A stretch of DNA of 12,292 bases from a virus (lineage: Duplodnaviria; Heunggongvirae; Uroviricota; Caudoviricetes), in IMG/VR virus record IMGVR_UViG_2547132278_000008, positions 1-12,292 of that record. One strand, given 5' to 3'. Made by a program: the position numbers and the translations under genes. The notes below the pieces were generated by a model. It had not been told where the DNA came from and did not search any database. It saw nothing but the letters and a program-made list of their open reading frames with translations. Below, piece by piece: positions 1 through 12,292 of the stretch (the stretch's first letter is position 1; each line of letters opens with the position of its first letter).

Positions 1-769
<769 letters not shown>

Positions 770-774
770 AACAA

Positions 775-814
775 AAGCCTGCTTTAAAGAGAGTTTGAAG
801 CAGGCTTTCTTTTA
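775..814 (+). terminator. Rho-independent terminator after the exonuclease remnant
   Basis: 10-bp stem AAGCCTGCTT (775-784) pairs with AAGCAGGCTT (799-808), followed by TCTTTT. Confidence 0.6.
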
Positions 815-929
815 AAGAACAGTCGCCTTTCAATCATTTCCTGCCTGTATTTAATACTTTTCCGCCTGATAGGTTTAGTCAAAATGCAGCCATCGAAACG
901 CAAATGTAACCAAACAGAAGGAGACTTAC

Positions 930-1739
930 ATGAGTTCGGTTGAAAATGTAATGACAAATGATGATCTGGACGAGCTGACAGCCATGTTGCAATCACTTGA
1001 TGAACCAGTAAAAAAAGCTGCACAGGTTGAAAATACTGATGATATTGACGATCTGCTGCTCGGCCTAGATGCTGGCGTAGCCATGAGTTCTGATGATGTT
1101 GCCGAAGAACTGTTCAATGAAGAAAAAGCAGGTGATTTCAGCTCTACTTTAAATGAGTTGGAGTTAGCGCATGAGCCTATAAACGTAATTAACGCTGAAA
1201 GTGTTGAAGCTGCCGAAAACGAGCCAGAACAATTGGGATTTATTGAGGTTGAAGAGTGTGTTGAGGTTAATGATGAATTAAAAGTTCAACAGTCAAATGA
1301 TAGCAATACAAATAAAAAAGCTCGTACTGCAAGAGGTCCTCGTTTTACTTTAAGTGATAAAGATGATTCGTTTTTCAATAAAGCGGGCTTAGAAAAAGAT
1401 ATTTTCTTAGACGCTTACGATAACGCGCCTGTCAAAGCAAAGGATAAGATATTAAACCTTCTTAATTGGTTTAGCGGAGGTCCAGATATTAGTGTTTACA
1501 CGGTAATTTCCATGAGACACCTTCTCACAGAAAAGAAGGCTACAAGTAATAGTATTAAGATTGCTTTAATGAGCAATCCAGAAAAACCGTATCCGCTTAA
1601 CACTGCGTCAACTCAGGCTGGGCAAATGATGGCTGTATTTCCAGCGACAGGAATTGCCGTTAGAGACGGTGGAAATCTAACATTGAACGAAGAATCACCG
1701 ATCGTTAAGAAGTTTGTCGCGGAGTACACTATTGGATGA
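930..1739 (+). CDS. Hypothetical protein with a strongly acidic N-terminal half (269 aa); candidate DNA-mimic or anti-restriction protein
   Basis: ATG at 930 with GGAG 8 nt upstream. The first ~125 residues hold roughly 35 Asp/Glu against ~4 Lys by hand count; the C-terminal half is mixed-charge. No recognised motif. Confidence 0.6.
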   Translation: MSSVENVMTNDDLDELTAMLQSLDEPVKKAAQVENTDDIDDLLLGLDAGVAMSSDDVAEELFNEEKAGDFSSTLNELELAHEPINVINAESVEAAENEPEQLGFIEVEECVEVNDELKVQQSNDSNTNKKARTARGPRFTLSDKDDSFFNKAGLEKDIFLDAYDNAPVKAKDKILNLLNWFSGGPDISVYTVISMRHLLTEKKATSNSIKIALMSNPEKPYPLNTASTQAGQMMAVFPATGIAVRDGGNLTLNEESPIVKKFVAEYTIG

Positions 1740-1815
1740 CGTTCCCCTACTTAAAATAAAGCCCATAGAGAGCTTTATAGTACTGGGTAAGCCAATCACA
1801 TACCCAGCACCACAA

Positions 1816-1864
1816 AAACGCGCCAGAGAGCTTCTCGTTTGCATTTCTGGCGCGTTTTATTTGA
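1816..1864 (+). terminator. Rho-independent terminator
   Basis: 12-bp stem AAACGCGCCAGA (1816-1827) pairs with TCTGGCGCGTTT (1846-1857), followed by TTTTATTT. Confidence 0.55.
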
Positions 1865-1922
1865 TTGCCAGACATAAAATCAAATGCAAAAATAGGTATA
1901 TACTTACCTATCGAGAAAGAAG

Positions 1923-2516
1923 ATGATTGCAGCCGAAAAAATCAAACAGCGAAAGCGCGACAACTCTCTTCGTGACCTCTGGAGAACACCTGACTGGCTG
2001 TTTTCTGCCATTCAACGTTATCTTGGAGTGACATTTGATGTTGACGTTGCCTGCAACAAGGACAATGCAAAGCTGCCTAATTTCATAGGCGTTGAGCGTG
2101 ATGCTTTGAAATCTGAATGGGGACAGCCAGGTACAATTGCCTTCCTCAATCCACCCTACTCCAAAATCTACCCCTGGATTGATGCGGCTATACGTGAGCA
2201 GGCTCGCGGAGTTACAACAGTGATGCTAATTCCTCAATCCCTAGATACAAAGTGGTATGAGCGTGCAACAGAGTGTGCGAATGAGACGATTATTCTGTCT
2301 GGTGGCCGCGTAGCGTTTGTCGAGCCTGACGTAAATCTGGGTCAGGTAGAAGTAAACATCAACCCAGGTGGCAGTATGCTCGTTGTTTTTCGAGGATTCT
2401 GTCAGGACGCTGGGCACTCTATAAGCAAGATCCCTTTGGACGTCATGAAAAGTCTGGGAGGGTATGATCCTGCGAATGTGATCAGGAAAAAAAGACCATC
2501 AAAGAAGGCTGCTTAG
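1923..2516 (+). CDS. Phage-type DNA N6-adenine methyltransferase (small Dam family, 197 aa)
   Basis: Motif IV FLNPPYS is present, and the WRTPDWLF N-terminal signature and ~200 aa size match the small phage Dam family from memory. An inverted repeat ATAGGTA...TACCTAT (1893-1912) lies just upstream of the start. Confidence 0.8.
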   Translation: MIAAEKIKQRKRDNSLRDLWRTPDWLFSAIQRYLGVTFDVDVACNKDNAKLPNFIGVERDALKSEWGQPGTIAFLNPPYSKIYPWIDAAIREQARGVTTVMLIPQSLDTKWYERATECANETIILSGGRVAFVEPDVNLGQVEVNINPGGSMLVVFRGFCQDAGHSISKIPLDVMKSLGGYDPANVIRKKRPSKKAA

Positions 2517-2537
2517 TTTGTTCTGGCGTCTGTAATT

Positions 2538-2602
2538 AGCCTGCTTCTGTATATATAAATAACCACATATTAATTATTAATATACGGAAGCAGGCTGTTT
2601 TG
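2538..2602 (+). terminator. Long-loop hairpin with T-tract (terminator-like) after the methyltransferase
   Basis: AGCCTGCTTC (2538-2547) pairs with GAAGCAGGCT (2587-2596), then GTTTTG. The loop is 39 nt and AT-rich. The stem core is the same as in the 775-808 terminator. Confidence 0.4.
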
Positions 2603-2701
2603 TATCAGAGACTCCAGACCTGAACATCACTACAGAATCCACTAGAACCCCTTCCCAGACGCTTTAAAATCGATTTTATGAACCACTTTAAGGAAACCAA
2701 C

Positions 2702-2932
2702 ATGTCATACCCGACTAATGTCGTTGCGCTCGTAGAGAGCGATTTTCTGGCCCAGGCTCGTGAAATGATGAAAGATCGTGAGCAGGCTTTCAACTTGTAC
2801 GAATGGGCAATTAAGTGCTTGCATCTTGGCGAGCATCGCGAACTTGTTGAACAGCTTTTAGGTGAGTTGATCAATGAGGTGTTTGCCTTGAATGTTCAAC
2901 TACATGGTAGAGAAAATAATCAATCACAATGA
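2702..2932 (+). CDS. Hypothetical small protein (76 aa; alternative start at 2678)
   Basis: ATG at 2702 preceded by AAGGA (2690-2694). Translation MSYPTNVVALVESDFLAQAREMMKDREQAFNLYEWAIK... has no recognised motif. Confidence 0.4.
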   Translation: MSYPTNVVALVESDFLAQAREMMKDREQAFNLYEWAIKCLHLGEHRELVEQLLGELINEVFALNVQLHGRENNQSQ

Positions 2933-3514
2933 TAGATAAGTACAAACTATTCATAAAGTGAATTGTAAGTGCTAAGATCTGATAGTTTCCAGTCGTAGAC
3001 TGGAGACTCGACCTGATGGGTGGGGGTAAGCGTCACTGGCGTCAGGTTTAAAAAAGCTCACTACCAGCGTAGAACTGGTGCCGTTTAGGTGTCGGGGAAG
3101 GGGGAACCAAAGTGAGCAGAGACAAGGGTCACTTTATGATTGTCGAGTCTGGGGTGTTTCGAGAGGTTGAATCCAGTACTCCCCTTCATAAAGTGTGGGA
3201 AGATCTCGGTTCTGGGGTGCTGTCATCCATAACTTCCCAAGTCTAAGCTGGCAGTAGACTTAGACCATAACTTTTCAGGTTATGAAACGACCAGGTTGGT
3301 GAGAGATTTTTATACTCACCTCCCTGGGAGAGTATTACCTGAAAAGACAACCTCTCACTTCGTTCGAGGTGAACTTCACTCACTTCGTTCGTTCAGTTCA
3401 GGTTTATAAAAACCTGTTCTGGGAAGTAATTTGTTTATTTTAATAATTATTAACACGCACGCGTGTGCGCACGCGCGAGGAAAAATCGGCGCGGCGCTTG
3501 ATTCAGGAGTTTAT
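2933..3514. other. ORF-free, repeat-rich and hairpin-rich intergenic region; candidate structured ncRNA, origin or regulatory hub
   Basis: No ORF of 60 aa or more on either strand. Hairpins include CCAGTC gta GACTGG (2989-3003), GGTGAG...CTCACC (3298-3320) and AGGTTT ataa AAACCT (3401-3416). Direct repeats include TCTGGGGTG at 3138-3146 and 3211-3219, and CACTTCGTTCG at 3356-3366 and 3381-3391. Confidence 0.3.
3453..3477. repeat. 25-nt perfectly alternating purine-pyrimidine tract (Z-DNA-prone) with central CACGCGTG palindrome
   Basis: ACACGCACGCGTGTGCGCACGCGCG read directly; lies about 40 bp upstream of the RNase HI start codon. Confidence 0.9.
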
Positions 3515-4105
3515 ATGACGACGAAGACACCAGCCCGATCGCAAGCAAAAACTCGCAAAAAAGACAAAAACAAAAATTCTCCCCGCACCAATCCCACAAC
3601 GCCTGTCGTAGAGTTCAATCCCCAGCTTAAAACCGTGAAAATCTTTAGTGATGGCTCTTGCCTTAAAAATCCGGGTGGCCCGGGCGGTTACGGTATCGTT
3701 CTCCAGTATCGTGGTGAGGAACGCGAGTTCTCAGATGGTTTTCATAGCACCACCAATAACCGCATGGAGATGATGGGGGCACTTATCGGGCTGGAGCGTT
3801 TGAAATATCCATGCAACGTTATTTTGCACTCTGATAGCCAGTATCTGAAAAACGGCATGACACAGTGGATGAAATGGTGGAAACGCAATGGATGGATGAC
3901 TTCTGACAAAAAACCGGTAAAGAATGTTGATCTGTGGAAGCGTCTGGATGAGGCCGCAAGTCGACATAATGTTCGCTGGAAGTGGGTTAAAGGTCACGCC
4001 GGGCATCGTGAAAATGAAATATGTGATCGACTCGCGAAGATCGCAGCTTTTTCAGCAGCAGATATGCCTCACAAGAAAGATATTGGTTTTGTTTATAACA
4101 AATAG
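3515..4105 (+). CDS. Ribonuclease HI paralog (196 aa) with a ~45-aa basic N-terminal extension
   Basis: AGGAG at 3505-3509 precedes ATG 3515. The core aligns by eye to E. coli RNase HI with all catalytic residues present: IFSDGSC (D), NNRMEMMGA (E), HSDSQY (D), [18 protein letters not shown] (H, D). The extension is Lys/Arg/Pro/Thr-rich. Confidence 0.85.
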
Positions 4106-4202
4106 TAAGTAAGTGTTTACCTATCATTTTAAATCATGTATCTTATCGGCGTCAGGATGACAATGTGTCGGTAAGACACAGTTCCAGGATGGAACGAGAA
4201 AG

Positions 4203-4224
4203 GCGGCTGGCAATCGCCAGCCGC
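4203..4224 (+). terminator. GC-rich hairpin (possible terminator or 5'UTR structure)
   Basis: GCGGCTGGC aatc GCCAGCCGC forms a 9-bp stem; the downstream tail CTCTTTCT is only weakly U-rich. Confidence 0.35.
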
Positions 4225-4253
4225 AACTCTTTCTGACACTGGATGGAGTCCAC

Positions 4254-4748
4254 ATGGCACGTCAAACCTATTTCACTTCTGTAACTAAACGTCCTCGTTC
4301 TTTACGTCAAATTTTGGCCGAATTATTTAGCGGTCGTGTTATGTCACGTCTTGATGAACTAGAGACTACCGTTCGGTTGCTGAATGAACGTTTAGATAAT
4401 CAAGCGTCAGTTGTTGCGAACGTGGGGGCGATTGTTGCCTCTGGTTCTTCACGCGAAGCGAAAAGTACACGGCCTTTAGTGAAGGAGAAAAACAACAAGG
4501 ACAGTTCGAATGGAAAATTTTCAAAGAAAGAGGCTGAAACCAATGGCCTACGTTCTCATTATAGTTTCACTGGCGACGGTAGCCGTTCCAGCCGGCCAGA
4601 GCCTTTTGATGCCGGGTTCATCCATCACCACACCTCCGTCGACGACAATTACCACCACTCCAGTAGAGCGTCCTGTCACTCTGGATGGGATGACGGTGGA
4701 TGCGATACCTCAAGTTCATCCGGTTACTCAGGATCATGCTGTGACTAA
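4254..4748 (+). CDS. Hypothetical protein; N-terminal ~85 aa look coding, C-terminal part is doubtful (overlapped by a +1 frame ORF)
   Basis: GGAG at 4245-4248 precedes ATG 4254. The N-terminus is coiled-coil-like, but after about residue 90 the translation becomes Ser/His/Cys/Gly-rich low complexity. Confidence 0.35.
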   Translation: MARQTYFTSVTKRPRSLRQILAELFSGRVMSRLDELETTVRLLNERLDNQASVVANVGAIVASGSSREAKSTRPLVKEKNNKDSSNGKFSKKEAETNGLRSHYSFTGDGSRSSRPEPFDAGFIHHHTSVDDNYHHSSRASCHSGWDDGGCDTSSSSGYSGSCCD

Positions 4749-4761
4749 GGCGGTTGTATGA
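4510..4761 (+). CDS. Small putative secreted or membrane-anchored Thr/Pro-rich protein (83 aa)
   Basis: AAGGA at 4496-4500 precedes ATG 4510. It has a signal-peptide-like N-terminus (MENFQRKRLKPMAYVLIIVSLATVAVPAGQS) and a TTPPSTTITTTP tract, and its stop overlaps the next start as ATGA. Confidence 0.4.
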   Translation: MENFQRKRLKPMAYVLIIVSLATVAVPAGQSLLMPGSSITTPPSTTITTTPVERPVTLDGMTVDAIPQVHPVTQDHAVTKAVV

Positions 4762-4946
4762 ACTGGTTTTCAAATCACTTTGGAAAAATTTGGCTGGCAA
4801 TTCTTGCCCTCATGGCCGCCGGTTGGGTATCGAACATTATAAAACTTGTTTGCTCTGGCGATCTCCAGTTTCAGGCTGGCATGACCTTGGCTCGTGTAGT
4901 TGGGATTTTTGTTTTTCCAGTCGGTTCGGTACTTGGTTATTTCTGA
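4758..4946 (+). CDS. Small membrane protein (62 aa, two predicted transmembrane helices)
   Basis: ATG 4758 overlaps the preceding stop (ATGA). Hydrophobic segments IWLAILALMAAGWV and VVGIFVFPVGSVLGYF. Confidence 0.45.
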   Translation: MNWFSNHFGKIWLAILALMAAGWVSNIIKLVCSGDLQFQAGMTLARVVGIFVFPVGSVLGYF

Positions 4947-5001
4947 CGGCTGTTAGTGCATATGCATTGACCATCTTTGCGTAAGCAATTTATGTAATTA
5001 G

Positions 5002-5020
5002 AAAACAACTTGTTTTGACA
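5002..5020. promoter_or_regulatory. Perfect palindromic operator-like site AAAACAA-C-TTGTTTT overlapping a consensus TTGACA hexamer
   Basis: Read directly at 5002-5016; TTGACA at 5015-5020. Sits 23 nt upstream of ATG 5040. A possible -35/-10 pair (TTGACC 4967-4972, TATGTA 4991-4996) lies upstream, but the promoter assignment is uncertain. Confidence 0.45.
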
Positions 5021-5039
5021 AATAATAAAAGGAAAACAC

Positions 5040-5465
5040 ATGTTAGGTTTCTTCAAAAAGAAAACTCGTAAAGCTGTTATCGAAGTCAAAAAAATGGAGA
5101 ACCGTGATGCGGTTGAGGCCACCGTGTGGGGCGCGTACATGATCTCCTATGCCGACGGCACATGTGACGCAAAAGAAATTGCCATTCTTGAGAAGACAAT
5201 TGCAGCTCTGCCTGCGTTTTCTCCGTTTGCTGGTGAAATTGCCCAAATGAGCGCCAATATCCGTGCTCGTTACGAAGCGTCCCCTCGTTCTGCTAATGCA
5301 CAGGCTATTCGTGAGCTGTCTGATATTGCGGGTACTCCAGAGGCGGTCGATGTTCTGTGTCTGTGCCTTGATATTGCCGATCAGGACGGCATTGGTGAAC
5401 AAGAAGAGCAGGCACTGAAAAAGATCGCCCAGGCGCTTCAGTTGTCACTGGATGCTTATCTCTAA
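5040..5465 (+). CDS. TerB-like (tellurite-resistance TerB family) protein, 141 aa
   Basis: AAGGA at 5029-5033 precedes ATG 5040. Two TerB-type repeats with acidic Asp-Gly motifs (ISYADGTCDAKEIAILEK and CLDIADQDGIGEQEEQALKKI) match the TerB architecture from memory. Confidence 0.7.
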   Translation: MLGFFKKKTRKAVIEVKKMENRDAVEATVWGAYMISYADGTCDAKEIAILEKTIAALPAFSPFAGEIAQMSANIRARYEASPRSANAQAIRELSDIAGTPEAVDVLCLCLDIADQDGIGEQEEQALKKIAQALQLSLDAYL

Positions 5466-5623
5466 TGCTTGAGAGATTCCGGCTTGTGATCGTCATTGCT
5501 CTTCTGGTGATGGCGGTGTTGGTGGATTTTACGGGAAAGATGATGTCTGTCATTTCTGATGGCGTCCTCATTGGTTTGGCGATCTACTTCGCTTATCCGT
5601 TAGTTCGTAAAGCAAAGTGTTAA
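5465..5623 (+). CDS. Unannotated small membrane protein (52 aa), translationally coupled to the TerB-like gene
   Basis: TAATG stop/start overlap at 5463-5467. Hand translation gives MLERFRLVIVIALLVMAVLVDFTGKMMSVISDGVLIGLAIYFAYPLVRKAKC with two hydrophobic segments. It is below the 60-aa threshold of the ORF track. Confidence 0.5.
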   Translation: MLERFRLVIVIALLVMAVLVDFTGKMMSVISDGVLIGLAIYFAYPLVRKAKC

Positions 5624-5625
5624 TG

Positions 5626-5653
5626 ACAAGGGCCATTTGGCCCTTGTGTTTCG
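5626..5653 (+). terminator. Rho-independent terminator after the TerB-like/membrane pair
   Basis: ACAAGGGCC attt GGCCCTTGT forms a 9-bp stem, then GTTTCG. Confidence 0.5.
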
Positions 5654-5730
5654 TTGACCGAAATAGAGAGTTTGCACCTTTACGTTTAGCTTGCTCCCCT
5701 TTTATGCCACATCACAATAAAGCCAATAAG

Positions 5731-5745
5731 AAAACAACTTGTTTA
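5731..5745. promoter_or_regulatory. Second copy of the operator-like palindrome (AAAACAACTTGTTTA)
   Basis: Matches the 5002-5016 site at 14 of 15 positions within a shared AGAAAACAACTTGTTT context; sits 17 nt upstream of ATG 5763. Confidence 0.45.
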
Positions 5746-5762
5746 AGCATTAAGGAAAACAC

Positions 5763-6329
5763 ATGTGCGAGAAATGCAAAGCAATAGCTGATGAACAAAA
5801 CGCCCTATTCGAAGAAATGGATGCTAATGAACTTGTCAAAATGTTAGGCATTGTTCGGGGAACAGAAGACGTTTCTATATTTGAGAGACTGTTTACAGTA
5901 CTTAATTTTAATTCCACCTTTGAAGAGCCAACTCAGGTTGTAGCTTTGGCACACCATTTCGGTGTTCATTATCTTGCCGAAAAAGAGCGCGCTAATAAGT
6001 TGCAGGCGACTTTGGATATGGTGAGCGAGACTCAAGGAACCCATGACGGTAACAATAGTGAGACGATTATTGCCAGCAAAGATCGTGAAATTGCCGGACT
6101 TAAGTCTTCTCTAACGATGTTGATGTCTGCAATCAATCTTATGTCTTCTAAAGCGGGATATAAAATGCCATCACTAAACAGTGACGATCCAATGGCCGTT
6201 CGCCAGCTTTTGGGAGCAATGGCCGACCAGCTTGATGATACGAAAAGTCGGCTTGAAGACATGATGCGGGAGCTTACGCATCGCCACGACTTGAATAAGC
6301 AACCGCACAAAACGCAATACGCACTCTAA
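5763..6329 (+). CDS. Hypothetical protein (188 aa)
   Basis: AAGGA at 5752-5756 precedes ATG 5763. No recognised motif. The gene has its own operator-like site upstream and a terminator downstream. Confidence 0.6.
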   Translation: MCEKCKAIADEQNALFEEMDANELVKMLGIVRGTEDVSIFERLFTVLNFNSTFEEPTQVVALAHHFGVHYLAEKERANKLQATLDMVSETQGTHDGNNSETIIASKDREIAGLKSSLTMLMSAINLMSSKAGYKMPSLNSDDPMAVRQLLGAMADQLDDTKSRLEDMMRELTHRHDLNKQPHKTQYAL

Positions 6330-6346
6330 TACTGCACCAGTCGACA

Positions 6347-6368
6347 GGGGGCGAAAGCCCCCATTTTT
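6347..6368 (+). terminator. Rho-independent terminator with GAAA tetraloop
   Basis: GGGGGC gaaa GCCCCC followed by ATTTTT. Confidence 0.7.
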
Positions 6369-6427
6369 ACGCCTTAAATCTGCTGTAACGCCTATGAATG
6401 CAGCTTTTATGCCTTTTTAAGTTTGCG

Positions 6428-6472
6428 ATAATTACACCAATCAGAAAACAAATTATTTAATGGTGTAATTAT
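6428..6472. promoter_or_regulatory. 12-bp perfect inverted repeat embracing a degenerate operator motif and the start codon of the 6471 gene
   Basis: ATAATTACACCA (6428-6439) pairs with TGGTGTAATTAT (6461-6472). The 21-nt spacer holds AAAACAAaTTATTTA (6445-6459), and the A and T of ATG 6471 lie inside the right arm. Confidence 0.45.
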
Positions 6473-8156
6473 GAATACAGCCCTTTCCATCATCGACGAT
6501 GCCAGCTCAAACACGGCTATCGACTATCGTCAGGAAATGAATGTCATCCACGAAATCGTGGCCGAGTGCGAGAAAGAGATCGCCTTCATGTATCAGGTAC
6601 ACGACTTCGTTTATGGCGACGAACGCCACAACATGATTAATCGCCTGCTGAGACTAAACCATCGACCAGATGAAGATCGCTCGCGTTTAAATCGAGGTTG
6701 GTTGGATAAAGTCGATCTGGAATGGGTGAAACAGAATATTTGGGCCGAGTACTGGAGGAAGGTCACGGACATGACTAACGTTTTGCTGATCATGCCAGCT
6801 TCCCGTCGAGATGAGTGGCGCGAGCAGTTTATAGAGGGCAAACAGGAAGTCATCAAAACTGACAGAACCGGCTGCCAGATGAAGGTTAAAGAGTTCGTTG
6901 GTGTACCGGAGTTCAAAGCAGAAACGGTCATACCCACGATGCTTAATTTGCTGAATGACAGGCACAAATATCTCTCTGAGCGCGTGTATGGCTTGTTTAA
7001 GGCGCTGAGTCCTGCGCACAAGACAAATAAGACAAACGGTTTCAGCGAGCGTCTGATAATCGCTGACTGCATTTCTGATTTCTGGCGGGACAGCGTTAGC
7101 GTGAACTATCGCAAAGAGGACTACATCGACGATCTGCGTGTCTTGCTTCATTTCTTCGCGCACAAAGAATTTATTACCATCAACCGCACTGCTGAGGTGC
7201 TATCAGCTGCGTATCGGGCAAACGACTGCCAGACCGGTGACTGGATGAACGTCGATGGAAATCTGATGCGCGTGAAGATGTTCAAGAACGGCAACGTTCA
7301 CTTTGAAATACATCCTGACGTGGCCTGGAAGTTGAATGAGGTGCTGGCTTACAGTATGCCTGCTGCAATCCCCGCGCCATGCCGAACTGCGCCAAAAACA
7401 CGGGCACCAAAGCAGTTCGGGTTAATCCAGAAGACGATCTCCGTGCCGGTTCGCACTGCGCTTCGTGACGGGCGATTGAGCAAAGACAAAGGCGTATGGT
7501 ACTTCTCTGATTCAGCTCTCCAGAAGTCGCAGGTGGAAGAGCTTGAGCGCACACTGAGCTTCATTGGCGGCGTGCAGGAGAAAAAGCACTGGCAGTTCCC
7601 GTATGACATCGGCCATACGCTAAATACGATTGTGGCTACCGGTTTAATACCGGATACAAAATCACACCAGTTCTACCCTACCCCACGCTTGATTGCTGAG
7701 TACGTTGCAAGAGCCACTGAATTGAAGCCTGGTGAGAAGCTGTTGGAGCCTCAAGCCGGACGTGGGGATCTTCTGGCCTATATAAACGCCGATCTGGAAG
7801 ATGTTACCTGCATAGAAATCGCACCTCTCTTCGCTGATATCCTGCGTGGAAAAGGGTATACGAACACGATTTGCTGCGACTTCATAAAGTGGTCTGAGGA
7901 CAACGCAGGTTATCAGTTCGACAAAATCGTTATGAACCCGCCGTACTCGCTTGGTCGTCATAGAGAGCACACGCTGGCTGCGCTGGGGCATCTGAAAGTC
8001 GGCGGGCGTCTTGTAGCAGTATTGCCGGGCACTGCGCCAATACTGGACTGGATGACGATGGATAATTACGTTTATGCCAGAGGGAAGTCGTTTACCAACG
8101 AGTTTGAAGACACAGGGATCACAGTCAGCGTATACGTTTTCAAACGCGTTAAATGA
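6471..8156 (+). CDS. Large protein (561 aa): N-terminal ~400 aa of unknown function fused to a C-terminal N6-adenine methyltransferase domain
   Basis: A motif I-like segment (LLEPQAGRGDLLAYI) and motif IV (VMNPPYS) sit in the last ~150 residues. The N-terminal region has no motif I recognise. Confidence 0.75.
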   Translation: MNTALSIIDDASSNTAIDYRQEMNVIHEIVAECEKEIAFMYQVHDFVYGDERHNMINRLLRLNHRPDEDRSRLNRGWLDKVDLEWVKQNIWAEYWRKVTDMTNVLLIMPASRRDEWREQFIEGKQEVIKTDRTGCQMKVKEFVGVPEFKAETVIPTMLNLLNDRHKYLSERVYGLFKALSPAHKTNKTNGFSERLIIADCISDFWRDSVSVNYRKEDYIDDLRVLLHFFAHKEFITINRTAEVLSAAYRANDCQTGDWMNVDGNLMRVKMFKNGNVHFEIHPDVAWKLNEVLAYSMPAAIPAPCRTAPKTRAPKQFGLIQKTISVPVRTALRDGRLSKDKGVWYFSDSALQKSQVEELERTLSFIGGVQEKKHWQFPYDIGHTLNTIVATGLIPDTKSHQFYPTPRLIAEYVARATELKPGEKLLEPQAGRGDLLAYINADLEDVTCIEIAPLFADILRGKGYTNTICCDFIKWSEDNAGYQFDKIVMNPPYSLGRHREHTLAALGHLKVGGRLVAVLPGTAPILDWMTMDNYVYARGKSFTNEFEDTGITVSVYVFKRVK

Positions 8157-8217
8157 TAGGTAAATACTTACTTAATTTATGTAAGAATGTAGTTACTAAA
8201 CGATAAGAGAAAAACAC

Positions 8218-8922
8218 ATGAGCAACCTCCAGTTAGAGCATTTTAACGTCACAGGCCATTCCGATTTTCCTTTCAAGTTTACATTGAAAGGTTATGCAGA
8301 GGATGCGGTAGGCCAGATCATTATTGATAAAGGCATCGTTAAGTTTGAGGGGAATTTTGATGAATCCGCGAAAACATTCATAGACTTCGTTGCCAAACGT
8401 TGGAGCGAGCAATGGAAAGACCTGGAAAAGCGCGCTAGTGAGTTTGATCGGTTCATGGATGCAATGGATACAGCAAAAGAGGCTCTTGCTGCCGGGACTC
8501 CGTTAGATCTGGAGTCACTTTTCAACGGCGAAGTGGCCTCTGCGATGTTCGCCACCATGTTCGCGGGTGAGTTCGTCCGCAGCGGTGCCAAAAACTACCT
8601 TGAGCTGGATTACAACGTCCCTGCAATTGGCGATTTCGTCGTTACCATCCAACGCAAAGAAGGTAAGACGCCAGGTGAACGCGTCGCAGAGCTTGAGGCC
8701 GTTGTGGATCAGCGTAACGGAGAGTGTGACCGTTTGATCAACGAGCTTCATGCACTTCGGGAAGAAAGAATATGCGCGGGTAGTAATACACGTAATGCAG
8801 CGGATATCTACTTCCAGTTAGTTGAGGAATGCCAGATTCCACCAGGTGGCTCTCTTGTCGATTACGTCAGACATTTAATGGCGGAAGTTAACTCCAGCCA
8901 TAAAGATGGTGAGGTGCGCTGA
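8218..8922 (+). CDS. Hypothetical protein (234 aa), downstream of the methyltransferase fusion with no intervening terminator
   Basis: Leader ...AAGAGAAAAACACATG. Long ORF with a clean shadow pattern; no recognised motif. Confidence 0.6.
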   Translation: MSNLQLEHFNVTGHSDFPFKFTLKGYAEDAVGQIIIDKGIVKFEGNFDESAKTFIDFVAKRWSEQWKDLEKRASEFDRFMDAMDTAKEALAAGTPLDLESLFNGEVASAMFATMFAGEFVRSGAKNYLELDYNVPAIGDFVVTIQRKEGKTPGERVAELEAVVDQRNGECDRLINELHALREERICAGSNTRNAADIYFQLVEECQIPPGGSLVDYVRHLMAEVNSSHKDGEVR

Positions 8923-9302
8923 TGTTTGGCATTGATGCACAGCGTATAGCAGCTTTTGCAAAAAGTCCTCTTGATAATCCCTTGTCTCGTAGTGAGCAAA
9001 TGGCGCTGGCAAGGCTTTTTCTTCACATTCAAAAACAGGCAGACGTTTTCAATAACATGCCTGATCAACCTATTCTGGATGGTCACATCCAGATGGTCAT
9101 TAACAGTCATGAGAAAGGCTGGGCTGCAATCGTCCCCTGCACAATTACATACAAGTTGGCGAAAGAGGTTCAAGAGTTTCGAAAAGTCAGCGTCGAATCA
9201 GAGTCTACCAAAGCCGCAATAAACACTCTTATTCGCATGGGGTTCACATGGGACGGTGGAGCTTACTGGCAAGCACCTCAACCCATTTTATCCGACAATT
9301 AG
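8922..9302 (+). CDS. Hypothetical protein (126 aa), translationally coupled to the 8218 gene
   Basis: TGATG stop/start overlap at 8920-8924. No recognised motif. Confidence 0.55.
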   Translation: MFGIDAQRIAAFAKSPLDNPLSRSEQMALARLFLHIQKQADVFNNMPDQPILDGHIQMVINSHEKGWAAIVPCTITYKLAKEVQEFRKVSVESESTKAAINTLIRMGFTWDGGAYWQAPQPILSDN

Positions 9303-9332
9303 GCGCTACAAATCCTTCTGCATGAATAAATA

Positions 9333-9367
9333 AAGGCCATAAGTTATGGCCTTAAATAAATTGTTTT
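9333..9367 (+). terminator. Hairpin with downstream T-tract (terminator-like); tail carries a degenerate operator half-site
   Basis: AAGGCCATAA g TTATGGCCTT (9333-9353), then AAATAAATTGTTTT (9354-9367). Confidence 0.45.
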
Positions 9368-9440
9368 CTACCTTTTCTTATTTGTGAAAATAAACCAGCA
9401 CTTGGTAGTGCTTATGTAACAGCAAAGAAGAGAAAAACAC

Positions 9441-9941
9441 ATGAGTAACAAAATCGAAAATCCCGTAGTTCTCATTCACAAGCGCGAGAACCACGACTCC
9501 TATGCGGTGGCGATCACCAATGGGAGTCACGATTTTTACGATGGCCTGCTAATGGCCTCAGTGTCGCCTGATGAGGCAGACAACTCTTTTGCCGTCTTCG
9601 CTATGGTTGGTTACTACATGGCTGCCGAAATTGAGAAGTTGCGGGCGCAAAGAGACGCATTAGCGGCGGAGAATGCAGCCCTGAAAGAATCTGAGCGAGC
9701 ATTCGATGCGATGTGTGCCGAGGAACACGGAGATAATTGGGTTAGCGAATTAACGGAGACTCCAGCCACCGATACTTTTCTGGCTGAAGTACGTGCGCAG
9801 GGCGTGGATATGGCTCGTAACGCGATGATTGATTTTGTTGATGGTGAAGTTGGGCCAAACAAGAACGTTCCGGGGCTGATTAGAGGCGCAGAGATATGCG
9901 TAAGTATTGCTGAACAGCTTCGTAAAGGAGTCATCCAGTGA
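9441..9941 (+). CDS. Hypothetical phage protein (166 aa), first gene of a six-gene coupled operon
   Basis: Leader ...GAAGAGAAAAACACATG. Contains a coiled-coil-like AEIEKLRAQRDALAAENAALKE segment. Confidence 0.6.
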   Translation: MSNKIENPVVLIHKRENHDSYAVAITNGSHDFYDGLLMASVSPDEADNSFAVFAMVGYYMAAEIEKLRAQRDALAAENAALKESERAFDAMCAEEHGDNWVSELTETPATDTFLAEVRAQGVDMARNAMIDFVDGEVGPNKNVPGLIRGAEICVSIAEQLRKGVIQ

Positions 9942-10405
9942 GCAAGATTGACTATCAGGCACTGCGTGAAAAGGCAGAGAAAGCAACGTGTGGTAAGTGG
10001 TCGCTCGAATATGGAGAGAGCCGATTTGATGGTGATGATGCGCTAATTCATCGTGAAGTTGCTGGATATATTCCTATTTGCAGAATTGAAGGAGCGCATC
10101 CTGAAAGCGGTTTCGATGAAGATTTCCAGATGGAACAGCAGGCCAATGCTGAATTCATCGCCGCAGCCAGTCCAGCTACCGTGCTGGCACTACTGGATGA
10201 GATCAACGCATTAGAGGAAACGCGTATCAACGATGTTTGCCGTATTGCGGAACTAACAAAACAACTGGAGTTGGCAAAATCAAAACTCAACGAGCAGCGT
10301 GAGTATTACGAGGGCGTTATCTCGGATGGAAGTAAGCGCATAGCCGCTCTTCTTCGCAAGGACAATCTTGCCAGCGCCACGAACATTGAAGGTGAAAGAA
10401 AATGA
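9938..10405 (+). CDS. Ead/Ea22-like phage protein (155 aa)
   Basis: GTG start with AAGGAG at 9925-9930; GTGA overlap with the upstream stop. The N-terminal [18 protein letters not shown] and later [23 protein letters not shown] resemble lambdoid Ea22-like proteins from memory. Confidence 0.6.
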
Positions 10406-10725
10406 CCACATCGCACTCTGCTATTACCCAAGAAAAAGCCTTCAACATACTCGAACGACTAGAGACGCTCGCTACGGAGGAGGATATATCCCCGGAGAAA
10501 CTGGTTGAGTTCAGCCGTGTGATATTGCGTCGCAAGAACGATATGGAGCGGCTGACATCTGGCGCTCCATCCTTATCAGTCAGGCGAACACTTTGTTGCA
10601 GCTTCTGCAACAAATCCCAGTACGCCGTCAAAAAGTTAATTGCTGGGGACGCCGTTTTCATCTGCGACGAGTGTGTGGATGTGTGCAACAGAATTATCCG
10701 GGGAGAGAAAGAGGGATCAGCATGA
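10402..10725 (+). CDS. Small protein with a C-terminal ClpX-type C4 zinc-finger domain (107 aa)
   Basis: ATGA overlap at 10402-10405. [35 protein letters not shown] aligns closely to the ClpX N-terminal zinc-binding domain ([34 protein letters not shown]). Confidence 0.65.
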
Positions 10726-11252
10726 AATTTTCCAAATTTTCTGAGTTGGTGAATCGTATTTTGTCCAACAACCACAGCCATCGTCGCGATATGGATGTAA
10801 CGATCGTTGTTCATTCGCCTGGTCGCATCGGTTCAACACCATCAGTTGAGGTTCAGTCAATTCAGGCGGGTTTTGATTGGGATGCCGGGCAAGTGATGAT
10901 TTTTCCAGCACAGCCACTGACCACGCTAACACCAGAGCAGGTTGCTGATATCACTGATAGTGTGCGCAAAGGTCAGTCTTGGCACGCGTATCAGGAATAC
11001 AAGAAGCATAAAGAGCAGTTGGAAAAATTGTCGATGGAGTTGGAAGCCGCTAAACAGCGGGAAAAAGATCTGTTTATGGAAAATGTTCGACTTAAGTCAG
11101 GTATAGCCGGTCTGATACACCTCGGTATTCGATATGCGGATGTTGAGGTCATGAAAATTGCTGGAGATGCCCAGCTTTCTACTCCATGCACTGACAGCAT
11201 CATAAACAGCATTGCAGCAGGCATTTTCACCAAAGAGGGGGCAGCACGATGA
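10722..11252 (+). CDS. Hypothetical protein (176 aa)
   Basis: ATG 10722 overlaps the upstream stop (ATGA), with GAGGG 6 nt upstream. The track ORF 10593..11252 is an in-frame 5' extension that overlaps the previous gene. Confidence 0.55.
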
Positions 11253-11434
11253 GAACACTAGAGGTTCGCGCTGAAGACGTAATCCCTGGTGATGTGCTCA
11301 TAACATCTAAAGGTCAACAATGTGCGGTTAAATCTTTTTGGATGGAAAATGACAAAGTGACTCTGTTCGGTACGGATGGTTCCGAAACTGATTATGACTA
11401 CGACGAATTGCTTGTTGTTGAGAGAGCTGCCTAA
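11249..11434 (+). CDS. Hypothetical small protein (61 aa)
   Basis: ATGA overlap at 11249-11252 with AGAGGGGG upstream. Confidence 0.45.
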   Translation: MRTLEVRAEDVIPGDVLITSKGQQCAVKSFWMENDKVTLFGTDGSETDYDYDELLVVERAA

Positions 11435-11940
11435 TGACCACCGTTAACAATAAGAAATGCTACCCAAGCGAGAAATATCTTAATGAGCTGATCACCAACA
11501 TTGAGTTTGCTGCAAGGGCACCAGTTGAAGTCGTGAGAGCGATTGCAGCAGAGCTACAGAAGCACCGTAAGGCCTATGCCAATACAGCCGCATCTAAGGA
11601 TGGTTGGATAAGCTGTAGTGAGCGAATGCCTGTAATTGGCGAGCTAAATTGGAGAACTAGTTTTCCTTTACTGGTTATGTGTGAGATCGGCGTTATACCT
11701 GCTTATTACGGCTTTGTGAGCGTTAATGGTGATAGGCATTATGGCTTTATGGAGAGTCTTAAATACGGAGACGATAACGGCAACCATCCTCAAACTAATG
11801 AATATGGTCTGATTAGCAATGTCACACACTGGATGCCACTACCAGAACGCCGCAGGAGTCGAACAGTGAATAATGCAGAGTTATTTCAGAAAATATGTAA
11901 GCGTCAACGGAGCACCGTATTGACGCTTATTTATTGGTGA
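11434..11940 (+). CDS. DUF551-like phage protein; last ~14 codons and stop are supplied by the inserted IS66 terminus (3'-disrupted)
   Basis: TAATG overlap at 11432-11436. GWISCSERMP and THWMPLPE motifs are typical of DUF551 from memory. The IS-like terminus begins at 11897, inside the ORF. Confidence 0.55.
   Translation: MTTVNNKKCYPSEKYLNELITNIEFAARAPVEVVRAIAAELQKHRKAYANTAASKDGWISCSERMPVIGELNWRTSFPLLVMCEIGVIPAYYGFVSVNGDRHYGFMESLKYGDDNGNHPQTNEYGLISNVTHWMPLPERRRSRTVNNAELFQKICKRQRSTVLTLIYW
11897..11929. repeat. Terminal inverted repeat of the IS66-family element (starts GTAAGCG), containing an internal 9-bp palindrome
   Basis: GTAAGCGTCAACGGAGCACCGTATTGACGCTTA; IS66-family ends typically begin 5'-GTAA. 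Internal arms AAGCGTCAA and TTGACGCTT. Confidence 0.55.
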
Positions 11941-12292
11941 GTACTACGTTCCATGGCAGGAGTTCGTCAACACGGTTGGAGGGCCATTCCGGCAGTACGC
12001 TCAGAATATGGCGCAGATACGCTTCCGGATCGATACCGTTCAGTCGGCAGGTGCCGATCAGCCCGTACAGCAGTGCTCCACGCTCGCCGCCGTGATCGCT
12101 ACCGAAGAACACGTAATTTTTCTTTCCGAGACAGACTGCACGAAGCGCTCTTTCCGCTGTGTTATTGTCCACCTCCGCCAGACCGTCATCACTGTAATAA
12201 CAGAGGGCGTCCCACTGATTCAGTACATAGCTGAACGCTTCGCCCAGTCTGGATTTTTTCGACAGCGTGCCATTCTTCTCCACCATCCATTC
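11927..12292 (-). CDS. IS66-family transposase (TnpC-like), C-terminal part; 5' end outside window
   Basis: The - strand translation ...NNTAERALRAVCLGKKNYVFFGSDHGGERGALLYGLIGTCRLNGIDPEAYLRHILSVLPEWPSNRVDELLPWNVVLTNK matches the conserved IS66 transposase C-terminus from memory. Confidence 0.8.
   Translation of the reverse strand, partial: EWMVEKNGTLSKKSRLGEAFSYVLNQWDALCYYSDDGLAEVDNNTAERALRAVCLGKKNYVFFGSDHGGERGALLYGLIGTCRLNGIDPEAYLRHILSVLPEWPSNRVDELLPWNVVLTNK

Follow-up and report, generated by a model that had tools for sequence, protein, structure and literature searches.

An RNase HI gene with a conserved polybasic N-terminal tail in SSU5/pHCM2-family phage-plasmids

Phage-plasmids of the SSU5/pHCM2 family encode an ordinary phage RNase HI, one that has already been automatically annotated in SSU5, pHCM2, Cyrano and hundreds of plasmids. 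We analysed the gene in a 12,292-nt stretch of viral DNA (IMG/VR record IMGVR_UViG_2547132278_000008, positions 1 to 12,292; hereafter the window), and the sole, modest feature of the enzyme that counts as uncharacterised is its conserved polybasic N-terminal tail, which is predicted to be disordered. On balance, we favour a reading in which the protein belongs to the element's replication module, would remove RNA primers and R-loops during the lytic cycle, and would use the tail as an arm with non-specific affinity for nucleic acid. For RNase HI itself the stakes are modest, and more of the interest lies around it, in a locus that is a hotspot of cargo exchange beside an uncatalogued conserved structured RNA.

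The open reading frame runs from 3515 to 4105, as the preliminary description had it; it lies on the + strand, includes the stop codon and encodes 196 amino acids. The ORF call, Pfam, NCBIfam, alignment and an AF2 model all identify it as an rnhA-like gene for RNase HI. Pfam RNase_H (PF00075) matches residues 40–178 at 1e-44 (152.6 bits against a cut-off of 25.8), the NCBIfam RNase HI equivalog NF001236 gives 220.5 bits (cut-off 160), and PHROG 531 ('Rnase H') matches residues 1–190 at 1.3e-80, which makes the protein a member of that group. Residues 40–178 form the RNase H catalytic domain (3632..4048, + strand), as delimited by Pfam, by alignment to E. coli RNase HI and by superposition of the AF2 model on known structures.

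With E. coli RNase HI (rnhA; PDB 1RNH/2RN2 family), the phage-plasmid protein shares the fold, the DEDD+H active site, the substrate contacts and the basic protrusion, and the two are 62% identical over 150 aligned residues. All five catalytic residues are kept in the pairwise alignment: E. coli D10, E48, D70, H124 and D134 correspond to D46 (codon at 3650–3652, + strand), E85 (3767–3769), D107 (3833–3835), H161 (3995–3997) and D171 (4025–4027). Seven substrate-contact residues are kept as well (N16, T43, N44, N45, S71, Q72 and N130 in E. coli numbering). The basic protrusion, which is of the E. coli type, is a 16-residue segment that aligns without gaps to E. coli WKKRGWKTADKKPVKN. In the AF2 model, the RNase H domain has a pLDDT above 90, and Foldseek places the model on E. 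coli RNase HI structures with a target-normalised TM of 0.88–0.95 and an rmsd of 1.3–2.0 Å. The preliminary description had reported that all active-site residues are present and had called the enzyme catalytically intact. The alignment bears out the former, and the latter is confirmed as far as sequence can tell. We infer activity from this conservation of the active site, by which the RNase HI is apparently catalytically competent.

The phage-plasmid enzyme also differs from that of E. coli. It has one residue more in the NPGGPGG loop and is much more positively charged, with a net charge of +17 (pI 9.95) versus +2 (pI 8.4), because a domain charge of +10 adds to a tail charge of +7. Unlike E. 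coli RNase HI, it is encoded on a phage-plasmid and is at background expression in lysogens, and it begins with an N-terminal extension that the E. coli enzyme lacks.

Among phage relatives, the orthologues in SSU5 (SSU5_090), pHCM2 and Cyrano (CYRAN_82) are 76–98% identical and already carry an RNase H annotation. In Cyrano the product is named 'Ribonuclease H/ Reverse Transcriptase 3', which is a label only. The RNases H of T5-like phages and ICP1, also annotated as such, are 30–41% identical to the phage-plasmid enzyme, and RNase H genes are annotated in many further phages. The T5-like and ICP1 enzymes align from residue 37–38 onwards and are therefore without the tail. About 100 nt past the stop codon of the gene lies a GC-rich hairpin of 9 bp, 8 of them GC (4203..4224, + strand), which is terminator-like and is followed by a weak T-run.

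The polybasic tail

The extension had been put at about 45 residues. It is genuine and, as had been claimed, absent from E. coli RNase HI, but it is shorter than that: E. coli M1-L2-K3 aligns to Q37-L38-K39, so the extension is 36 amino acids long. Codons 1–29 (3515..3601, + strand) make up the tail proper, which we delimited by AF2 confidence, dN, a census of variants and composition. These 29 residues score below 50 in pLDDT and form no secondary structure in the AF2 model, i.e., they are predicted to be disordered, and with six Lys, three Arg, seven Thr, five Pro and four Asn they reach a pI of 11.2. Codons 30–39 (3602..3631, + strand) form a junction that leads into strand 1 and carries an F[ND]PxLK motif conserved in all lineages. 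The model packs this junction confidently against the RNase H domain (pLDDT about 86 for the block).

Between the Enterobacter, Salmonella pHCM2 and Klebsiella lineages, dN is 0.5–0.6 in the tail versus 0.05–0.08 in the domain, while dS is above 0.9 or undefined (saturated), so the amino-acid sequence of the tail is weakly constrained. Its character is more stable: tails in clades A, B and C are 19–38 amino acids long, have a net charge of +3 to +8 and few hydrophobics, and all end in F[ND]PxLK. Clade A also conserves the N-terminal MTTKTPAR motif at the amino-acid level, and clade C has MSKSKKKSKDKG... and MVNSSKKNKRNS.... In a census of loci that were gathered via the conserved element upstream of the gene (clade A, n = 72; clade B, n = 16), the tail ORF is intact in 61/61 full-length clade-A genes, among which there are 22 tail variants. 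Within a close E. coli subclade, diversifying selection on the tail was not detected, the ratio of nonsynonymous to synonymous changes being 4:1 in the tail versus 5:9 in the domain, a difference that is not significant (Fisher p = 0.14). Judged from these aligned genes, the family conserves the charge and disorder of the tail but not its sequence, and the extension is a translated family feature.

RNases H1 that contain a hybrid-binding domain (HBD), which are of the eukaryotic or B. halodurans type, have this folded domain at the N-terminus, before their type-1 RNase H domain. The phage-plasmid protein is like them in having an N-terminal appendage ahead of a type-1 RNase H domain, and by analogy this appendage could raise substrate affinity. 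It is unlike them in that no folded HBD is there. The Pfam scan (E ≤ 0.01) found RNase_H only and no hybrid-binding domain (PF01693-like), the tail is predicted to be disordered, and residues 1–45, when searched against 1.84 billion representative proteins, matched nothing but pieces of this protein and two repeat proteins of low complexity, i.e., no homologues outside the family. We therefore reject the idea that the tail is a hybrid-binding or other folded domain. It would most likely be functionally analogous, not homologous, to the hybrid-binding domain of eukaryotic RNase H1, and it offers an uncomplicated natural system in which to ask how appended charge affects the affinity and processivity of RNase H.

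The tail might instead work chiefly at the RNA level, as an A/C-rich unstructured stretch that directly follows the start codon, behind a very GC-rich hairpin in the leader, and keeps the ribosome-binding site accessible, with the peptide a tolerated by-product that would do little or nothing as protein. This would suit the composition of the tail DNA, which is 41% A, 32% C and 10% T, with 36% A at third codon positions versus 18% in the domain, and the clade B and C tails are A-rich too, even though they look unrelated. It would also suit the poor conservation of the peptide (dN about 10 times that of the domain) and the GC-rich palindrome directly upstream. The latter is part of the conserved rnhA leader (3454..3499, + strand), which consists of a GC-rich palindrome of alternating purines and pyrimidines and a GAGGAAAAA run. 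However, the net charge of the peptide is positive in every lineage, and the conservation of MTTKTPAR in clade A is likewise at the protein level. A mere leader would have no need of the conserved ATG and the intact frame, since translation could begin at the GTG of codon 41. In addition, the shift of the catalytic domain to +10 suggests protein-level selection for charge. We consider it rather unlikely that the tail acts chiefly as RNA, and a nucleic-acid-binding arm is our preferred reading of it.

Replication setting and a labile slot

The preliminary description placed the gene on a mobile element, and that element can be named: the window is part of an SSU5/pHCM2-family phage-plasmid of about 110 kb. 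A 1-kb query around the gene matched 683 PLSDB plasmids, nearly all of them 'non-mobilizable' and about 105–130 kb in size, with Escherichia, Klebsiella, Enterobacter, Salmonella, Citrobacter and Cronobacter as hosts. The same query also matches the phages CMS-2020a, PhiR41_1, Cyrano and SSU5. Among complete E. coli genomes, 205 of 5,426 have the gene, and it is almost always plasmid-borne.

The near-identical plasmid NZ_CP083502 is fully annotated, and there the gene is located among phage replication genes, as is typical of a PHROG 531-type replication-module RNase H. On the rnhA strand, this plasmid has genes of nucleotide metabolism and replication (nrdAB, thyA, dhfr, an epsilon-like 3'-5' exonuclease, dnaE, a DnaB-like helicase, a toprim protein and DNA ligase), a Dam methylase, SbcCD-like genes and a 5'-3' exonuclease with an H3TH (FEN) domain; it also has a RepB-type plasmid initiator and virion genes. 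RNase HI, FEN and ligase form a complete set for Okazaki-fragment maturation. The phage-plasmid family that carries this set is widespread, being found in hundreds of plasmids of Klebsiella, Enterobacter and Salmonella, including pHCM2 of S. Typhi.

Expression can be read from Cyrano, which is 98% identical to the window at the rnhA locus. In the transcriptome of the E. coli LF82 Cyrano lysogen, which covers the lysogenic state only and not the lytic cycle, CYRAN_82 (rnhA) has a value of 8.4, with its neighbours at 6–10 and a local background of about 10 (PMC9928086, S1 table). The gene is thus at background in this lysogen and is therefore not a lysogeny-expressed moron. In the literature that was searched, nothing relevant turned up on an RNase H from SSU5, from pHCM2 or from phage-plasmids.

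Among the roles that had been proposed for the enzyme, the processing of RNA primers or R-loops fits this context best, given the replication neighbours and the background expression in lysogens. The scheme that we infer, from the activity of the enzyme and the timing of its expression to its primer/R-loop role and the binding function of its tail, would run as follows. While the element persists as a low-copy plasmid prophage, rnhA would stay at background. RNase HI would be made after induction, when it would work with the 5'-3' exonuclease (FEN) and DNA ligase of the element to take out RNA primers and would clear R-loops during rapid lytic replication, supplementing but not replacing host RNase HI and Pol I. 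The polycationic tail would serve as a non-specific electrostatic arm, with which the enzyme binds nucleic acid more tightly or dwells on it for longer, and the elevated positive charge of the whole protein would likewise give it more non-specific affinity.

To judge by the sequenced loci, rnhA is dispensable in the phage-plasmid family and its slot is labile. In clade A, the gene is absent from 7/72 loci and a remnant only in 4/72 (about 15% together), and in clade B it is missing or a remnant in 6/16; overall, the gene has been replaced or inactivated in about 20% of relatives. In one of them, Klebsiella pYZ-58-110k, JukAB replaces the 5' half of rnhA (PADLOC: JukA 1.8e-65, JukB 1.8e-12), and other plasmids have unrelated genes of unknown function in the slot. 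In relatives with other cargo, the swap junction lies directly after the A-run of the 3454..3499 leader. K. oxytoca relatives have a full ORF, but it carries D10N, D70S and H124T and falls under the NCBIfam cut-off. In clade C, a second RNase H-like gene, in tandem and catalytically dead, overlaps the start of the active rnhA.

Such a slot could also suit a moron-like accessory gene that acts in conflict, its RNase HI destroying the hybrids of host or rival systems or hampering competing plasmids and phages. Candidate targets may be retron msDNA, defence-associated reverse transcriptases and R-loop-based interference. Three observations favour this: the slot lies downstream of a conserved element and holds JukAB or unknown genes in relatives; rnhA is dispensable; and in some lineages the copy is inactivated, or an active RNase H stands in tandem with a pseudo-RNase H, which is uncommon among housekeeping genes of replication. 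However, rnhA is at background in lysogens, a state in which expression of morons and defence genes is the norm, and every conserved surrounding gene is one of replication or nucleotide metabolism. No defence model in PADLOC-DB matches RNase HI (E ≤ 0.01), though the same search found JukA/JukB in the homologous slot of locus L008. An RNase H associated with a retron or other reverse transcriptase would be fused or adjacent to it, and no RVT domain was found in the 20 larger window ORFs that were scanned, including every long ORF near rnhA. T5 Rad, the sole phage anti-retron protein that we found in the literature, is a Toprim protein and not an RNase H, and the literature that was searched had nothing relevant on an anti-defence role of phage RNase H. 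The earlier suggestion that the enzyme acts on retron or reverse-transcriptase products is not supported, on the same three grounds (ORF scan, PADLOC and T5 Rad), and we hold conflict cargo in general to be doubtful.

It is quite improbable that the RNase H slot is a conflict locus and not a replication locus, with RNase HI as a tail-targeted factor that acts on RNA/DNA hybrids in counter-defence or inter-element competition. Hints in that direction are the dead tandem paralogue, the inactivated K. oxytoca form and the exchange of rnhA with systems such as JukAB in the same slot, downstream of a conserved structured RNA that is expressed in lysogens. We retain the reading of rnhA as a replication-module gene.

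The structured RNA upstream of rnhA

The 580-nt 'intergenic' region at 2933–3514 is more conserved than the genes that flank it. It includes a conserved structured RNA of about 460 nt (window positions about 2984–3446), just upstream of rnhA. The core of this RNA, about 440 nt, has at least 88.7% identity in 80 loci, and alignment columns 138–471 are near-invariant among 52 distinct sequences from Escherichia, Klebsiella, Salmonella, Enterobacter, Kluyvera and Buttiauxella. A sigma-70-like promoter is recognisable by eye (TTCATA-17-TAAGAT, 2950–2978), and the 3' end has a terminator-like hairpin with a T-run (about 3403–3445). The 5' hairpin differs wholly in sequence between sublineages while its pairing is always kept, one helix has four compensatory pairs, and the predicted folding energy is −167 kcal/mol for the + strand (z = −4.8) versus −139 for the − strand.

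CYRAN_81, which lies within the element, is 12-fold over background in lysogens (PMC9928086, S1 table). It is annotated as a 44-codon ORF, and we reject it as a real gene because natural 1-nt indels break its frame. The element of no clade has a match in Rfam. We also rejected a role as a trans-antisense regulator on the plasmid, for which complementarity is at chance level only (best 13 nt, E 0.63).

Clade B and C plasmids have a positional counterpart, which is also a structured RNA and has a canonical terminator. In this RNA, 19 pairs are changed on both sides, versus 7.5 ± 1.9 when shuffled (0/500) and 2–7 in slid-partner controls. A covariance model of its 5' domain finds no match in clade A, so it is not established that the elements of clade A and of clades B/C are homologous. 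The upstream RNA is retained where rnhA has been lost and is therefore independent of RNase H. It may bear on the maintenance of such elements in the plasmid state, and together with the cargo hotspot it is a more promising lead than the RNase HI.

The RNA and rnhA are neighbours, and RNase HI might process the upstream transcript, in the manner of a ColE1 RNA II-like R-loop at a transcription-primed lytic origin. The element would be a suitable substrate in that it adjoins rnhA, is highly conserved, structured and transcribed, and is separated from the gene by a GC-rich tract and then an A-run. However, it is unchanged where rnhA has been replaced or lost, it has its own terminator-like hairpin and T-run ahead of the GC-rich tract, and it is expressed in lysogens whereas rnhA is not. 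Cumulative GC skew, calculated for a whole relative plasmid, tracks gene orientation and has no inflection (the sign of an origin) at the rnhA locus. This kind of processing has very little chance of being the enzyme's task, and the removal of primers and R-loops in lytic replication is still the role that we prefer.

Start codon and database annotations

The ATG at 3515 is preceded, at a distance of 5 nt, by the Shine-Dalgarno sequence AGGAG (3505..3509, + strand), which was read from the sequence. Its GGAG and the ATG are kept at equal spacing in Enterobacter, Salmonella pHCM2 and Klebsiella relatives. The tail frame stays open across divergent lineages despite saturated synonymous sites, and the indels within it, of 9 and 12 nt, are in-frame. 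The alternative is an in-frame GTG (V41; 3635..3637, + strand), which has no Shine-Dalgarno sequence before it and is used as the start in 157-aa database annotations.

If the GTG were the true start, the extension would be an annotation artefact, as the preliminary description had allowed, and the protein would have 156–157 amino acids like E. coli RNase HI. Three NCBI records (P0078, P0083 and P0084) do give 157 amino acids from the GTG. P0078 is the only one of them whose DNA was examined, and it lacks the ATG because its contig begins within the tail, 83 nt before the GTG. Given this truncation, the missing Shine-Dalgarno sequence, the conserved ATG with its frame intact in every full-length clade-A gene, and the K. 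oxytoca relatives, which have no internal start codon or Met at all, we reject translation from the GTG, and an artefact is scarcely credible.

The same considerations apply to clade B. Its Klebsiella genes (e.g., locus L009, annotated as 166 aa) seem to be tail-less relatives, but an ATG preceded by a Shine-Dalgarno sequence lies 69 nt upstream and adds MAKKPTKQKGIKYNRQKHISDKN before the annotated Met. For this reason, and because the K. oxytoca genes could not start internally, we rejected L009 as a tail-less relative. Annotated lengths of related genes are 157, 166, 196, 214–215, 222 and 254 aa (the last a 765-nt CDS in SSU5), and our analysis corrects the inconsistencies in start site among these database annotations.

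Structured RNAs upstream of rnhA

Directly 5' of rnhA, conservation and folding point to a candidate structured non-coding RNA of ~460 nt (window 2984-3446, + strand), which is preceded by a promoter-like sequence (2950-2978, +) and ends in a terminator-like hairpin and T-run (about 3403-3445, +). Its identity is at least 88.7% among 80 loci from six genera, whereas the genes neighbouring it have saturated synonymous sites. Several of its helices show compensatory changes, and its predicted fold has a minimum free energy of -167 kcal/mol (z = -4.8). In lysogen RNA-seq, CYRAN_81, an annotated 44-codon ORF of the phage-plasmid Cyrano that lies within this RNA, is 12x above background; CYRAN_81 is a mis-annotated ORF. 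The RNA had no match in Rfam, and loci without rnhA still keep it.

Klebsiella elements of clades B and C, which are other lineages of the same phage-plasmid family, carry a second structured RNA of ~440 nt at the syntenic position (e.g., L009 1755-2200 and L018 4780-5200, with relatives). In this RNA 19 pairs covary, compared with 7.5 +/- 1.9 for shuffles; a canonical terminator is present as well, and it too had no match in Rfam. A covariance model built from its 5' domain did not detect the RNA of clade A (the window's own lineage), so homology between the two RNAs is not established.

The rnhA position as a site of cargo exchange

Between the terminator of the upstream RNA and the Shine-Dalgarno sequence of rnhA sits a region (window 3454-3499) in which a conserved, GC-rich palindrome of alternating purines and pyrimidines (ACGCACGCGTGTGCGCACGCGCG) is followed by GAGGAAAAA and then a GC-rich stretch. 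The palindrome region might act as an operator, form a leader hairpin or mark a recombination junction.

The site of rnhA is a hotspot for cargo exchange. The slot matching window 3500-4250 lies at 3185-4803 in the Klebsiella plasmid pYZ-58-110k (L008), and in other related plasmid loci at L007 3215-4861, L006 3248-4091 and about 1785-2241 of L022/L023. In pYZ-58-110k, the 5' half of rnhA has been replaced by a JukAB defence system, leaving a 3' remnant of the gene at L008 4963-5280. In other plasmids, the slot holds unrelated genes, which had no match in Pfam or PADLOC. The junction of the swap falls directly 3' of the conserved GC-rich palindrome and A-run.

On the other side of rnhA, two small hairpins whose loops display GGA (GUCA-GGA-UGAC and GUUCC-AGGAU-GGAAC; window 4148-4195) may be CsrA-type binding sites before the next gene; the CsrB-like Rfam match here is weak (16.8 bits, E 0.33), far under the gathering score.

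RNase H-like genes with altered active sites

In certain SSU5-like variants there is a tandem RNase H-like gene of 171-178 aa (L015 166-702; L016 218-733; L018/L019 5477-6004) that has lost its catalytic residues (D10 is replaced by S, and E48, H124 and D134 are all replaced) and scores only 35.9 bits in NCBIfam. It overlaps the start of an active, short-tailed RNase HI and could be a pseudo-enzyme partner. A different RNase H-like ORF, found in K. oxytoca and K. michiganensis plasmids (L020 1773-2336; L021 1770-2333), retains its full length, including the basic tail, carries the substitutions D10N, D70S and H124T, and falls short of the RNase HI equivalog cut-off (145.8 bits against 160). 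Either this gene is decaying or its product has been repurposed for hybrid binding.

Other genes of the element

A small stand-alone toprim-domain protein of about 174 aa is encoded outside the window, about 6 kb past its 3' end in element coordinates (NZ_CP083502.1 2924-3448, in a near-identical plasmid). T5 has an anti-retron protein, Rad, which is described as having 189 aa and a Toprim domain (bioRxiv 10.1101/2023.03.15.532788). Within the window, a 107-aa protein (10402-10725, +) contains a C4 zinc finger of the ClpX type (Pfam, 1.2e-15) and lacks an ATPase domain. The DUF551 gene (11434-11940) is abutted and truncated by the C-terminal portion of a transposase of the IS66 family (11927-12286, - strand, up to the window end; Pfam DDE_Tnp_IS66 8e-19, IS66_C 5e-17), which looks like an IS insertion in the present copy of the element.
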